Assembly (NCBI GenBank): GCA_965262915.1 | Contig: OZ253564.1 | Coordinates: 2,208,001-2,272,000, forward strand | Direction: 5' to 3' | From: Candidatus Spongiisociaceae bacterium | Lineage (GTDB): Bacteria > Actinomycetota > Acidimicrobiia > Spongiisociales > Spongiisociaceae | DNA length: 64,000 bases | In this document: positions 47,311 to 52,461 of the stretch, in pieces | Numbering within the stretch: the first letter of the stretch is position 1 | Layout of the letters: every line of letters starts with the position of its first letter | Program-made: the position numbers and the translations under genes | Notes under the pieces: model-generated | Database searches by the model: none | Seen by the model: the letters and a program-made list of their open reading frames with translations, nothing else | Told to the model about the DNA's origin: nothing

Positions 47311-48594
47311 TCACGGGGCAGGGCCGTCGCGGGGGTGGGTTTGGTAGCCGTCGGGGGTTCGTCGGACTACGAGGTTGCTGGTTTCGAGCCATTTGTGGTG
47401 GCGGCGGCAGGCGGCGACGAGGTTGGCGATGTCGGTGCGTCCTCGGTCGCGATGCCATTCCTCCATGTGGTGGAGTTCGCATCGGTGCATGGGAGCGCAG
47501 CATTCGAAACATCCCCCGTCCCTAACGGTCACCGCCAGGCGTTGGGCGGCGTTCGCCAGGCGCTGCTTGCGGCCTAGCCAAAGGGGACGGCCCATCCGGT
47601 CGAAGACCATCCCCGCCAACTCGGTGTCCGGGCTGAGCGTTTCGAGTATCCGGCGGGGTACGGGGCCGACTCCGACGATCTCGCAGTGCCCGTTGGGGTT
47701 GGTGCCGTCGACCACGCCGTACGGAGCGACGAGGATGACCTGGGTGGAGGCCTTGGCCTTCACGCCAACGGTCTCGCCTATGAACTCGCCGGTGACCGCA
47801 TCGCGGTTGGTGAGCAACTCGAACACCACATCAACGAGACGCTGCTTCGGGGTACGGATTTCATCCGGGTCGCGGTCGTCGGCGCCGTCTCGGCGTAGGT
47901 GACGCATGTAGTGGCTGTCCACGGCTTGGCGGACGTGTTCGAGCTGGGGGCCGGGGAGTTTGGCCATGAGCACTCCGAGCCCTGTGTCCTTCTCCACCCA
48001 GAGTTTGGCTTCTCGGGCCCGCCGCTGACGTTCGAGAGGGTCTACGCCCGCTTCGATCAGCTTCTGGTTGGACCATTTCCGGGTGTGCCGGTCGAAGCTA
48101 TCGGGCAGGAGTTGGTCGGCAGCCTCGATCAGGCTGTCGTCGGCTTCCACAGCTTCGGGACCGACCTTCTCCGCGGCGTTTGCGAGAGCGTTGACGTGAT
48201 CTGCGGTGATTTCACCGGTCGCGAACCGCTCCCTGACTTTGGGCATTTCCGAGAGCTGGCGTGCTACCTTGGCTATCCGCTTGGATTCGCGCCCGGGTAG
48301 CCGCGCTCCCTGCCGCAATACCTCCGCCGGGTCGGTGTCGGAGTCCGAAGCAGACACCTGGCGGGTCACATCGCACATCAGGGACGTGACCACCGATTGC
48401 ATCTGGCCTAACAACCCGAGAGTCCGGTCTGCGTCGGGCCGGGACATCGGACCGATCTCGACTTGGTTCAACTCCCCGAGCGCGGCAGTGATCCGATCGG
48501 CTGGGTCGCTGTGGGAGCCATTCGACGCCTCGAGGGTTGCGCCGCCGACGCCGACGCTGTCTCCGAAGAGAGCGAACACATGTTCGTTGTCCAT
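47311..48594 (-). CDS. DUF222 / HNH endonuclease (13E12-repeat-like)
   Basis: PLWLGRKQRLA..QRLAVTVRDGGC..C..CELHH..W..GRTDIANL..CRRHH. Confidence 0.9.
   Translation of the reverse strand: MDNEHVFALFGDSVGVGGATLEASNGSHSDPADRITAALGELNQVEIGPMSRPDADRTLGLLGQMQSVVTSLMCDVTRQVSASDSDTDPAEVLRQGARLPGRESKRIAKVARQLSEMPKVRERFATGEITADHVNALANAAEKVGPEAVEADDSLIEAADQLLPDSFDRHTRKWSNQKLIEAGVDPLERQRRAREAKLWVEKDTGLGVLMAKLPGPQLEHVRQAVDSHYMRHLRRDGADDRDPDEIRTPKQRLVDVVFELLTNRDAVTGEFIGETVGVKAKASTQVILVAPYGVVDGTNPNGHCEIVGVGPVPRRILETLSPDTELAGMVFDRMGRPLWLGRKQRLANAAQRLAVTVRDGGCFECCAPMHRCELHHMEEWHRDRGRTDIANLVAACRRHHKWLETSNLVVRRTPDGYQTHPRDGPAP
48573..48586. promoter_or_regulatory. LexA SOS box inside the 5' end of the DUF222/HNH gene
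   Basis: CGAAC-ACAT-GTTCG. Confidence 0.8.
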
Positions 48595-48600
48595 GATGTA

Positions 48601-48630
48601 GTTATACCAAACGCCTGTGACAAATGTCAA
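48601..48630 (-). promoter_or_regulatory. Sigma-A-type promoter, probably leaderless
   Basis: TTGACA-N18-TATAAC with extended -10 TG; 6 nt to the ATG at 48594. Confidence 0.7.
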
Positions 48631-48868: not shown

Positions 48869-49204
48869 TCAGGCAGTAACGCCCTCACCGACGGCCAGAA
48901 ACAGATCGATCACGCGCTTGTAGTGGCCGGCAGCGACCAGATCGAGGGGCTTCTCGTAACCGAGATCGCGGTTGGGGGAACGCATCCAGAACCGTGCAGC
49001 GTCGTCGCGCATGACGCGGCGGGTAAGGTCGATCACCGCCCGGAGCTCGAGTAGCCGCTCTTCGGCGTGGCGGCGAGGAGCTGTTTCCTGGGAGCGCCAA
49101 CGGGCGACGCTGCGCGGGTTGGTCTCGCTAACCCGCGCCAGGTCGGCGGTGTCGACGACACGTCCTTCGTAGAGGTGATCCAGAAGAGTTGCGAGGGCCC
49201 TCAT
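48869..49204 (-). CDS. Xre/MbcA/ParS family antitoxin
   Basis: HTH plus WMRSPNRDLGYEKPLDL toxin-binding motif; GGAGG RBS. Confidence 0.88.
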   Translation of the reverse strand: MRALATLLDHLYEGRVVDTADLARVSETNPRSVARWRSQETAPRRHAEERLLELRAVIDLTRRVMRDDAARFWMRSPNRDLGYEKPLDLVAAGHYKRVIDLFLAVGEGVTA

Positions 49205-49301
49205 GTGCGATCGTCCTCCTAGGGTGTAGTAGCACGTCGTGTATTTGTCGTCCTATACGTCCCCAACAAGGTAAAGGGGCTCATCGATGCTCCTATGGTT
49301 G

Positions 49302-50531
49302 TCAAATCGATGATGGGGCGGTTTGGTGGGTGTGCAGCCAGTTCTGGTATCGGGTGGCGAGGTGGTGGTTGTGGTCTCGGCCGTGTTCGAGTGCTGAGAT
49401 GCGATTGGGGTGGGTTCCGACGGCTTGGGCGGTCTGGGTGAGGGTGATGCCGCGTTGTTGGCGTCGGGTGCGTAGGCGGGCGCAGTTCGGGGTTGGGTGC
49501 GGGTTGGTGAGGAGCCGGTAGATTTCTCGGGCGATGTGCCGCTTGAGGCAGCGGATGATCTCCTTTTTCTTCTTGCCCTCGGCCTTGCGTCGTGCCACGT
49601 AGGCTTTGGTGGCGGCGTCGGTGCGCATCCGGGTGGTAGCGATCCGCCATAGCGCGTTGTTGGCTTGGCGGTTGCCGCCCCGGTTGAGACGATGCCGAAG
49701 GGTTCGTCCTGATGACGCCTGGACGGGGCTGGCGCCGCACAGCGCCGCGAAAGACCGTTCCGATTTCATTCGCTTGGGGTTGTCGCCGGCGGCGACCAAC
49801 AACGCGGCGGCTGTGTCAGGACCGACACCTTCTGTGGCCAGCAGGGCCGGGTTGGCCTGGGCGCAGAGACGCCGGATCTCGGCTTCGAGTTGGGCGATCT
49901 CTACGTCGAGAGCCTGATACCGGCGGGCCAAATGCTGTAGGGCACGCTTCGCATACGCGGTGGTGGTGTGGTCTGTGCCGGGTCGGAACCGGGCACAGGT
50001 TTTGACCCGTGCTTTGAGATTCATGCCCTTTAGCTGGTGTTTTAGCGGCTCGGGAGCTGTTACGACCAGCGCATGTATCTGGTTAGCGGCCTGGGTGCGG
50101 GCCTTGACCGCGGAGCGGCGCACCACCCACAGCATCCGTATGCACTCGACCGGGCCCACACCGGACTTGGGAACCGCGGTTGCTTCGCCCGAGGCAGCTG
50201 CCCGAGCTGCCGCCTCGGCGTCGACGCTGTCGGTCTTGCCGCCCTTCTGGCGGCGTAGTTGGCGGTTGGGGCGGTTGACCTCCACCACCTCGATGTTCAT
50301 CTCGGTCAGGTAACGGGCCAGGCCGGCGCCGTAACTACCCGTTCCTTCCACCCCAACCCGAACCAACTGTCCCCGCGACTCGAACCAGGTGACCATTCGC
50401 CGATAACCGGATTCCTCCACCGCGAAAGACTCCGATCCCAGTACCCGCCCGACGCCATCCACCACCGCTGCTACGTGGACGTCCCGATGGGTGTCAACCC
50501 CACCGTAGATAATCTGGTCTGCTTCTCCCAT
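49302..50531 (-). CDS. IS110 family recombinase with C-terminal XRE-like HTH
   Basis: DEDD residues (GVDTH, GVEGTG, KTDSVDA), EGVGP, ASSG serine, RGGNRQAN; GAGGAG RBS. Confidence 0.95.
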   Translation of the reverse strand: MGEADQIIYGGVDTHRDVHVAAVVDGVGRVLGSESFAVEESGYRRMVTWFESRGQLVRVGVEGTGSYGAGLARYLTEMNIEVVEVNRPNRQLRRQKGGKTDSVDAEAAARAAASGEATAVPKSGVGPVECIRMLWVVRRSAVKARTQAANQIHALVVTAPEPLKHQLKGMNLKARVKTCARFRPGTDHTTTAYAKRALQHLARRYQALDVEIAQLEAEIRRLCAQANPALLATEGVGPDTAAALLVAAGDNPKRMKSERSFAALCGASPVQASSGRTLRHRLNRGGNRQANNALWRIATTRMRTDAATKAYVARRKAEGKKKKEIIRCLKRHIAREIYRLLTNPHPTPNCARLRTRRQQRGITLTQTAQAVGTHPNRISALEHGRDHNHHLATRYQNWLHTHQTAPSSI

Positions 50532-50559
50532 GATGCTCTTCTCCTCTAGGGGATAGAAT

Positions 50560-50748
50560 CATTTCCGATCCCCGGACCCGTGTGCGGTTGGACAGGCCAC
50601 TCACGGTGGAGAAGTTGAAGGCTCCTATTAGGTCACATCCGCCCCGGGTCACGGGCGTCACGCCCCAGGCCGGGAACGGGCCGACAGATCGATGAAAAGG
50701 CACAAGGCCAGATTTCAGTTGGGTCAGACCCGCCCTAGCCCAGGAACC
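50560..50748 (-). ncRNA. Putative bridge RNA of the IS110 element
   Basis: Two loops, each with two guide-like segments matching the target (ACTGAAATC, TCATCG) and donor (ATAGGAGC, TGAGTG); ends approximate. Confidence 0.75.
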
Positions 50749-50767
50749 CTCCAATTATGAGTGGATT

Positions 50768-52049
50768 TCAGTGGGGAGTGACGGTGGCCAATAGGTCCCA
50801 GTTGGGTTTCCCGGCGTAGAGAAGGGCGCGGATTCGGTAGTTCGCGAAGTTGGGTAACCCGAACGCTGCTCGTTTGATCCGTTTGATTAGGTTGTTGAGG
50901 GCTTCGGTGGGTCCGTTGGTTACCTTCGAGATGTGCCAGTTGGTGATCTGGGGGGTCCAGCGGGCGATGGTACGTCCGAGCTTGTTGATCTCGGGTGGGC
51001 AGGATTCGTCCTGGAGGTCGTCTGCGAGCCCGAGGGTGTATCGGAGAGCAAGGACCGGACTTTCGATCCCGTAGATGCCTCGTACCGTTTCGGTTGCGTG
51101 CCAGGCGGTGCGTACCTCGCCGTGGGGGTCACCGGCATCGAGGAGACCACGCAGCCGTGTTTGACCGCGGTCGCTGATCCTCTCATGGGCGGCGGTGAGG
51201 AGGCGGCGTATCCGATACAGCGGGTCATCCTTGCGGCCTCGATGCCCGAGGGTTTCGTTCTGGGTGCGGCGTCGTACTTCGTCGAGTCGCTGGTTGGCCA
51301 AGCGGATGACGTGGAAGGGGTCTGCTACCTGCACAGCGTTCGGCAACACCCTGTCGTACGCCTTCCGATAAGGCCCTGACATGACCCGACACCGCCCAGC
51401 GGATCCCGTCGAGCCACTCGGGGGGCTGTGACCGGAACCACGACACCGCGCTATCAGCCGTTCTACCACCGACTATGTCGAACCGGCTGGTGGCCTCCCA
51501 CATCGACGACAGAAGTGCACCAAACCTTGGTGCGCCACCGGCCTTTCCGCCAGAACAACGCGTCTCGTCGATGCCCACAGCTCCGACCTCGCCTATCCGA
51601 TCGGTGTCGGCCCCCAGGAGTGCATCGCCCCAGCGGACGACCTCATTGTTCACCGTATGCCAATCACAACCCAACTCCGAGGCGACCTCGTCGACCGAAC
51701 GGCCCCGCCCACCCACCCCGACGGTCACCCACCGGGCCGCTCTCGATGTCAACAACGCCCGTTCGGGACCAATCGTGGGGTCTTGTTCGATGAACGATCT
51801 GATCTCACAGTCGGGGTTCGGGCACGTCCAACGGCGTTTCCGCCACCGCAGCCGAACCGGACGGCCGAACGCCGGTAGATCCACCAACACAACCGTTCTG
51901 TGACCCTTGGACCACACCGGGCCACCACACGCCACACACAACGGGCGGGCCTTGCGGGACCCGATCACCACCCCAAGCGGTGCACCCTCGCCCGAGTCGT
52001 TGATCCCTACCAGATCAACGTCGCCCAGGCCTACCAACAACTCGCACAT
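50768..52049 (-). pseudogene. ISL3 transposase with multiple frameshifts
   Basis: MCELLVGL, DLPAFGRPVRLRWRKRRWTC, GIDET in one frame; DPFHVI, TNGPTEALNNLIKRIKR in another. Confidence 0.9.
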
Positions 52050-52461
52050 GCGCGCAGGGATCAGCTTCCACAGGGGTCCTCCTGCCTCGGATGTCTTTTC
52101 TCAGCACCCGATTATGGAGGACCCCCCATCACTTCTGGTGGATTACCACTCCCCCTAGCAGATCCCCGACTCCCCACTCATTTCCGAAGAGCCGGTAAAG
52201 GGGGACATGCACGGTTGGGGGCGGAGCGGCCATCTCTAACCTTTTCCCAGTAGCTGGCCGGGCCCACTCAGTAGAATCGGTCCTGACCTCGCGGATGCTT
52301 CGGTAGCGACTGGAATCATGCCGGAACAACCAGTAGCCACGACGGGGCTCTGGCTCGTTCATTGACATAGATCCGAGTGAAGACCAGCCGCCGCCGCCAT
52401 CGCCAATAGACTGACCGGACAATCATGGGAACTTCGGAGGAGCGCGGTGCGTCCAAGTTGT

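Follow-up and report, generated by a model that had tools for sequence, protein, structure and literature searches.

What places one insertion sequence, always at the same nucleotide, in the terminal repeat of another? The question is raised by a stretch of 64,000 nucleotides from the genome of a Candidatus Spongiisociaceae bacterium (Actinomycetota, Acidimicrobiia; contig OZ253564.1, positions 2,208,001 to 2,272,000 of the forward strand), hereafter called the window, in which an IS110 element interrupts the end of an ISL3 element at 49270-52201. The original prediction, made from the letters of the window, was that the insertion is precise and that the IS110 is RNA-guided. We compared the locus with the related copies in the window genome, a single contig of 5.06 Mb, and with other genomes, plasmids and public sequencing runs, and conclude that the element is very probably a bridge-RNA IS110 whose integration into a resident ISL3 was specific for a site in the right inverted repeat of that element.

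Structure of the locus

The two elements are nested on the minus strand in the order target site duplication (TSD), ISL3 left repeat, broken transposase gene, inner 16 bp of the ISL3 right inverted repeat (IRR), IS110, outer 9 bp of the IRR, and TSD. The 8-bp TSD copies (GGTAAAGG; 49270-49277, adjoining the IRR, and 52194-52201) are identical and bracket both elements, as had been predicted. The IS110 element is complete (1,477 bp; 49287-50763, minus strand) and severs the IRR into an outer piece at 49278-49286 (GGCTCATCG on the plus strand), the inner 6 nt of which constitute the right target (CGATGA on the minus strand), and an inner piece at 50764-50779, which holds the left target and the ISL3 stop codon TGA (50768-50770). 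Counted from the insertion point, the ISL3 tip is 9 bp away in one direction and the stop codon 4 nt away in the other (4-5 nt had been estimated), and the IS110 is oriented as the ISL3 transposase gene. Excision of 49287-50763 in silico gave GGCTCATCGGATTTCAGTGGGGAGT, a restored 25-bp right repeat that matches the reverse complement of the other ISL3 end (GGCTCTTCGGAAATGAGTGGGGAGT; left inverted repeat, 52169-52193, minus strand) at 21/25 positions, which reproduces the earlier observation. Because exact removal of the 1,477 bp recreates the uninterrupted ISL3 end sequence, no target duplication was made by the IS110. The precise insertion into the ISL3 right repeat was thereby confirmed at the window locus, and it also held against the uninterrupted ISL3 copies described below. 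The ISL3 left repeat is not used by the IS110 and has, by inspection, 3 mismatches to the left target guide. We also noted that the ISL3 left repeat contains, on its minus strand, CACTCAT (CCCCACTCATTTCC, within 52169-52193), the heptamer with which the IS110 left end starts (50757-50763); this may be a coincidence, since all IS110 lineages have that end whatever their host.

Protein domains, leader, guides and end structure assign the element to the IS110 group of the IS110 family. Its recombinase gene (49302-50531, minus strand), intact in 8/8 full copies of its lineage, encodes 409 aa with a DEDD RuvC-like domain (Pfam DEDD_Tnp_IS110, PF01548; E 1.2e-23, 84.1 bits vs a cut-off of 29) and a Transposase_20 domain (PF02371; E 1.7e-19). 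A phmmer search matched it to the IS621 transposase (8wt6_A, E 9.5e-12): the stretches GVDTH, VEGTGSYG and KTDSVDA align with the corresponding IS621 stretches, and the serine region ..SPVQASSGRTLR.. aligns with ..TPRRYESGSSVR.. of IS621, the identity of the catalytic serine within it being our assumption. The 409-aa protein also carries a C-terminal helix-turn-helix (HTH) of the XRE type (Pfam), which is lacking in the solved IS621 protein, a 328-residue chain. The element ends (CACTCATAATTGG... and ...CCATAGGAGCAT) form no terminal inverted repeats, the first 20 nt matching the reverse complement of the last 20 nt at 4/20 positions. Traits of the IS1111 group are absent: the non-coding leader (231 nt) lies upstream of the recombinase gene, only 18 nt (stop codon included) follow the reading frame, and the ends lack an inverted repeat.

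The host is an ISL3-family element (ISL3-1): Pfam domains DDE_Tnp_ISL3, Zn_ribbon_ISL3 and HTH_Tnp_ISL3 were found in the two pieces of its reading frame (50768-51469 and 51225-52049, both minus strand), its terminal repeats agree at 21/25 positions, and most copies are flanked by 8-bp duplications, a length we take to be typical of the family. The transposase gene (50768-52049, minus strand) differs from intact copies of 445-451 aa by four insertion events (+1, +2, +1 and +1 nt) and is therefore truly broken, in line with the decay claimed for it. There are 38 long ISL3 matches in the genome, 14 of which stop at the insertion point and 24 of which run through; two additional truncated copies also hold an IS110. 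The right end predicted beforehand for uninterrupted copies, ...ACTGAAATCCGA(T/A)GAGCC, was seen in 16 of these 24, one of them with T as the last base; in most uninterrupted copies the 8-bp duplication then follows, and their right repeat reads ...GAAATCCGATGAGCC.

Site specificity across the genome

BLAST of the window genome recovered 9 IS110 copies of at least 99.1% identity (lineage A) and a second lineage (lineage B) ~80% identical to the first, and a covariance model of the leader found 38 loci, 17 of them with the ISL3 guide. If the insertion in the window were site-specific, all copies of the element should lie in ISL3 right repeats, and 16 of these 17 loci (lineages A and B) do, at the same ISL3 nucleotide and all in the orientation of the transposase gene; one lies elsewhere. 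The occupied site reads ...CACTCCCCACTGAAATC / element / CGA(T/A)GAGCC. A 20-nt left-junction pattern (up to 2 mismatches) occurred 16 times in the genome, vs 0 occurrences of the reversed control. The target is multicopy, as had been supposed: next to the 16 occupied sites, 12 exact and 6 one-mismatch copies of the 15-nt target are vacant, so that about half of the matching ISL3 sites are filled and half are open.

Since the left target shares bases with the ISL3 stop codon and belongs to a repeat that is recognised by the transposase, ISL3 would have little room for mutational escape. Six ISL3 copies end in ...ACTGAAACGCGATGAGCC, where the bases that correspond to the final two positions of the left guide are both changed, and these copies hold no IS110. 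This fits the poor tolerance of core mismatches described for the bridge-RNA system (PMC11208160), but the copies are related and few. Variant sites of this kind may show how much mismatch the guides tolerate: CGAAGA is used, and ...AACGCG... is unused in the 6 copies. The ACTGAAACGCGATGAGCC copies (e.g. C1:479336-480775, 1601850-1603289 and 3227218-3228657) have matching changes in the left repeat and a split reading frame in every case, with pieces of 247 and 239 aa in five copies and of 239 and 209 aa in the other; this sublineage either spread while broken or has a programmed frame change.

The bridge RNA and its guides

The 5' non-coding ends of seven IS110 lineages from the window genome were aligned, and a consensus fold was computed with RNAalifold. 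Invariant blocks (GGTCTGAC, TGGC, GCCTT, GATCTGTCG, TAGGAGC and TGAGTG) are separated by short variable segments, and the alignment and fold delimit a bridge RNA gene at element positions ~22-186 (50578-50742, minus strand) that comprises one loop for target binding and one for donor binding. On its 5' side, the target loop carries the left target guide (LTG; ACTGAAATC, 50711-50719, minus strand), which equals the 9 nt of ISL3 immediately to the left of the insertion, and on its 3' side it carries the right target guide (RTG; TCATCG, 50690-50695, minus strand), the reverse complement of the CGATGA on the right. The match to the ISL3 end is complete (LTG 9/9, RTG 6/6, total 15/15). The left donor guide (ATAGGAGC, 50621-50628, minus strand) equals the element's own right end, ...ATAGGAGC(AT), and the reverse complement CACTCAC of the right donor guide (GTGAGTG, 50598-50604, minus strand) matches its own left end, CACTCA. 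In the consensus fold, a conserved 12-bp stem, in three pairs of which both partners vary, closes off an internal loop that has the target guides on opposite sides and a small inner hairpin; the fold gives good support for the target loop, and the donor guides were identified by sequence.

The strongest evidence for guidance is the covariation of guides and flanks across the seven lineages. In a guide/flank matrix, each lineage paired with its own flanks at 14-15 of 15 positions, and wrong pairings gave a mean of 7.3 and a maximum of 11. The RNA guidance that had been supposed for the window element is thus supported both by the match to the ISL3 end and by this covariation. It could be argued that the protein chooses the site, e.g. 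that its C-terminal HTH reads the ISL3 repeat, and that the leader matches are incidental. Such a domain is present (residues 351-386, 27.6 bits vs a cut-off of 27), yet seven lineages with similar proteins and similar ends occupy seven different sites, and it is two short segments of the leader that vary together with the flanks (the same has been published for IS621 and ISEc21), which makes a choice by the protein very unlikely. With seven related elements, seven guide pairs and seven verified targets, this one chromosome represents a natural experiment on guide reprogramming.

We also considered a target with a single C, ACTGAAATCGATGA, as the true target, which would leave double-C ends immune. 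It was rejected, as the left repeat also has the doubled base, the 16 diverse hosts would all need to be rare variants, and the guides of lineage C (one of the seven) fit a one-C circle. One uninterrupted ISL3 copy with an intact 451-aa reading frame (C1:306070-307506) has a right repeat that is one C short, ACTGAAATCGATGAGCC; the two guides, given a one-base overlap such as other lineages have, would fit this sequence.

Independent insertions and order of events

Lineage A copies are 99.3-100% identical to each other, whereas their ISL3 hosts are mostly 88-94% alike (one host pair 98.6%). Two 100%-identical IS110 copies sit in hosts that are 94.0% alike, and ISL3 hosts that are 98.0-98.8% alike hold IS110s of different lineages. 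Near-identical IS110s in divergent hosts indicate that the insertions were independent. A perfect 8-bp ISL3 duplication surrounds 10 of the 13 composites for which both ends were found (one further composite matches at 6/8, two are unmatched); the duplications span the composites, and together with the independence of the insertions this shows that ISL3 came first and IS110 later, many times.

Both the ISL3 duplication on the outside of the composites and the terminal 9 bp of the right repeat are retained, as would be expected if ISL3 and IS110 formed one two-gene composite transposon that moves as a unit and passes on a shared junction. That explanation is contradicted by the near-identical IS110s in hosts of 88-94% identity and by the near-identical hosts with IS110s of different lineages; in addition, no duplicated composite was found in the genome, 24 ISL3 copies have an uninterrupted repeat without IS110, and all 10 identical, recently spread ISL3 copies lack the interruption. 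We regard it as highly improbable, the independence of the insertions being sufficient to rule it out. Homologous recombination or gene conversion, by which a single ancient insertion could have been passed between ISL3 copies, would profit from the long homology which these copies offer on one side. The other side offers only 9 bp, two IS110 lineages of ~80% identity occupy the same site, and each composite has its own duplication; independent insertions and so short a homology leave this origin with hardly any credibility. Mis-joining of repeats in the long-read metagenome assembly might be suspected in one contig with ~5.9% estimated contamination and very many repeats, but it can be dismissed, as 16 loci each have unique flanks and matching duplications, a separately named genome repeats the same junctions, and one contig of a public run (X3) joins unique flank, duplication, repeat tip and 17 nt of the IS110 in that order.

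The separately named assembly is an Acidimicrobiia metagenome-assembled genome (L001), which has an identical recombinase and the same junctions; the 17 nt in the X3 contig are too few for formal bridging. The public-run contigs are hints only. A joint 49269>52194 that skips the whole composite was present in two runs (X1 and X13), but one side of it consists of 20 letters only, for which reason it was not counted as an empty allele. RNA-library contigs ~92% alike cover 50584-50771, i.e. the leader and the bridge-RNA region, and DNA can be present in such libraries; on the recombinase gene they have one short, loose-ended stretch only (49570-49797), the uncovered parts being uninformative.

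Proposed mechanism and effect on the host

By analogy with the published IS621 mechanism, the non-coding left end of the IS110 would encode a two-loop RNA. The loop with ACTGAAATC and TCATCG would pair with the ISL3 end, using a different strand on each side of the crossover, and the loop with ATAGGAGC and GTGAGTG with the joined ends of the element itself. The DEDD/serine recombinase would then exchange strands between a circular form of the element and the ISL3 end, leaving no duplication. When the ends are joined, they create TTGACA, 17 nt and CATAAT, a predicted promoter whose -35 box lies at the right end of the element (49300-49305, minus strand) and whose -10 box lies at the left end (50754-50759, minus strand), so that it would exist on the circle only. 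The circular intermediate, the junction promoter and the chemistry of recombination are all taken over from IS621 in this scheme.

Transcription from the host may contribute as well. In IS621, transcription that reads through into the leader is enough for excision, which is lost when a terminator lies upstream (PMC13626964). As the IS110 of the window lies directly downstream of the ISL3 gene and in the same orientation, read-through from that gene could supply RNA and recombinase for a later excision of the IS110, a possibility that we raise with some doubt.

For the ISL3, the insertion means that its terminal 9 bp are parted from the rest of the element by 1.5 kb, and normal end recognition should therefore fail. 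That the split repeat stops ISL3 movement is plausible and, on balance, probable: all 10 identical, recently spread copies are uninterrupted and interrupted copies have no twin, which is consistent with immobilisation. The conflict can also run in the opposite direction. At C1:4175386-4178302 a copy of the identical, active ISL3 lineage lies inside a lineage A IS110, 25 bp from the right end of the latter and with its own 8-bp duplication GGTTTGGT; the invaded IS110 is in turn located in the repeat of an older ISL3 that is truncated at its 5' end.

Several observations weigh against this interpretation. The mechanistic steps are drawn from sequence and from the IS621 analogy, and no circle junction or excised site was observed among the contigs searched. 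RNAalifold did not recover a clean donor loop, and an Rfam scan of 49200-52300 gave no match to a bridge-RNA family (a sub-threshold radC match inside the recombinase gene was rejected as chance). Only one nucleotide, C, is common to the joined ends (GCAT-C-ACTCAT) and the target (AAATC-C-GATGA), a two-nucleotide core would read TC in the donor and CC in the target, and the register of the left guide varies, with a 1-nt overlap with the right guide in lineages C, e23, e25 and e28 and direct abutment in A/B, e24 and e30; the single shared C and this shift of register mean that the cleavage points cannot be fixed from these data. At four of 15 right junctions the sequence is CGAAGA, one mismatch to the guide. 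One lineage B element with the ISL3 guide (C1:3663633-3665110) sits at an unrelated site, aaagaaccc/caccgcc, which adjoins the 3' end of a reading frame with a presumably IS1182-like C-terminal sequence. The left half of this site matches the left guide of lineage C at 7/7 positions, and trans guidance by the RNA of another lineage, or a later exchange of leaders, are possible explanations. The contrast in decay is weak: a reading frame of at least 405 aa was retained in 4/14 interrupted vs 16/24 uninterrupted ISL3 copies, but 10 of the latter 16 are identical and stem from one recent burst, and with the burst counted once the figures are 4/14 vs 7/15. The other IS110 lineages of this genome are, by inspection, not co-oriented with the host transposase gene, which weakens read-through as a general rule.

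Other IS110 lineages and relatives in other genomes

At least six other IS110 lineages in the window genome have the same end sequences, other guides and locations within other mobile elements (e.g. C1:541942-543405, 544755-546218, 2007816-2009345, 4996136-4997597, 962732-964217, 713844-715373 and 642089-643613). Their sites comprise the terminal-repeat tip of a second ISL3-family element (ISL3-2; 4 copies), a position ~25 nt further inside the repeat of that element, its stop-codon end, a position close to the end of an IS3-like element (~7 nt away), another IS110-type transposase gene in its 3' part, and a repeat located at the ends of a ~2.2-kb element. The lineages might constitute a guild, each reprogrammed against a different resident element (ISL3-1, three sites in ISL3-2, the IS3-like element, the other IS110-type gene and the 2.2-kb element), which by splitting repeats acts as an evolvable, RNA-guided brake on transposons, with the ISL3-1 specialists coupled to their host by read-through. 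We offer this as a speculation that is rather unlikely to hold in full. If it did, host elements would be disabled by the splitting of their terminal repeats, a natural brake on other transposons, and expression of the ISL3-1 specialists would be tied to transcription of the host transposase.

Relatives were sought more widely. The left-junction pattern, applied to 60 genomes of relatives, most of them fragmented, matched in 2 besides the window genome, and both matches are stubs. One (L003, G007:C23:6952-9971) consists of the first 55 nt of the leader, through the left guide, fused to GATGAGCC in an ISL3 right repeat; in the other (L005, G027:C104:28095-29812), ~20 nt of the IS110 left end are followed by GTGAGCC, again in an ISL3 right repeat. 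Both stubs may be scars of aberrant recombination at guide-encoding DNA, and the first, like the single-C end ACTGAAATCGATGAGCC, may be a footprint of such events. A covariance-model search of 150 genomes of the same order gave bridge-RNA-like matches in 25 other genomes, a tally that includes the unpublished genome G032. The ISL3-1 guide was present in 0/27 parsed same-order loci (those of G032 not among them), 6 of the 27 had no recognisable motif, and several lay downstream of an IS110-type gene. A metagenome scan with the exact target-loop pattern gave 0 matches, the pattern being so strict that the result is silent on rarity.

Seven neighbourhoods of plasmid relatives included one inside an IS30 transposase gene, one just past an IS256 gene and one near another IS110 gene; in 4/7 no annotated transposase adjoined, the PLSDB annotation being incomplete. 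The closest plasmid relative (55% aa identity), on pREL1 of Rhodococcus erythropolis PR4 (NC_007491.1, 222854-229073; 5 matching places in the record), lies within an IS30-family transposase gene, which it interrupts. The conserved blocks recur in its leader, and the flank CCAAGG is the complement of its right guide, CCTTGG.

In the window itself, the ISL3 is located ~65 nt upstream of a 111-aa gene with an Xre/MbcA/ParS antitoxin C-terminal domain (48869-49204, minus strand). No toxin-sized reading frame follows this antitoxin-like gene, the next gene encoding a DUF222 protein (47311-48630, minus strand).

Comparison with known systems

Bridge RNAs are known from IS621 of E. coli, where a two-loop guide was described (PMC11208160), and corresponding seekRNAs are encoded upstream of the gene in IS110-type elements such as ISEc21 (PMC11187229); a promoter formed across the joined ends has been described for the IS110 family (PMC13626964). 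The window element resembles IS621 and ISEc21 in its recombinase with DEDD and serine regions, its long upstream leader for a two-loop RNA, a left guide with the top-strand sequence of the left target and a right guide complementary to the right target, donor guides that match the ends, the lack of inverted repeats and of a duplication, and the predicted promoter at the joined ends. It differs from IS621 in its target, which is the end of another insertion sequence and not a REP repeat, in its protein, which has 409 aa and a C-terminal HTH vs a chain of 328 residues and gives only the distant match mentioned above, and in its core, a single shared C vs a CT that is identical at both boundaries in IS621. 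The RNA also differs in sequence and in details of its stems, and has no Rfam match.

With respect to the target, all ISL3-borne copies (16/16) share nucleotide and orientation, the trait of IS110 elements that target transposon ends. Such elements are known already. Muller, Lauf and Herrmann (2001) reportedly described IS1383, which inserts into the inverted repeats of IS1384 in Pseudomonas putida. As far as its title tells, this is likewise an IS110-family element that specifically targets the inverted repeat of another insertion sequence; its host, however, is listed as IS5 family, not ISL3, the organism is a proteobacterium, and IS1383 groups with ISEc11-like sequences in a supplementary table. 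The terminal repeats of Tn21-family transposons are 38 bp long, and IS4321 and IS5075 of the IS1111 group are said to lie in them (Partridge and Hall, 2003). Like the window element, they reportedly occupy one position, in one orientation, of the terminal repeat of a different transposable element, but their subterminal inverted repeats of the IS1111 type and their downstream non-coding region have no counterpart here. The original prediction had drawn the comparison with IS4321/IS5075; it is apt, and IS1383 in the repeats of IS1384 is the closer precedent.

In the literature searched we found no report of an IS110-family element in an ISL3 repeat, and a catalogued example may exist in ISfinder; the accessible portions of the 2024 bridge-RNA and seekRNA papers, the supplementary files of Durrant et al. 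and a 2026 preprint on IS110 loci contain no mention of ISL3 or of an ISL3 target. On this basis it is ISL3 as a host that appears to be new, and the locus adds both the ISL3 family and the Acidimicrobiia to the short list of transposons that live in the ends of other transposons. For annotation, IS110 insertion into the right repeat explains why many ISL3 copies of this genome seem to have lost their right end. Beyond that, the comparison raises two ideas, namely that such elements may restrain other insertion sequences and that they may borrow the transcription of the elements in which they reside.

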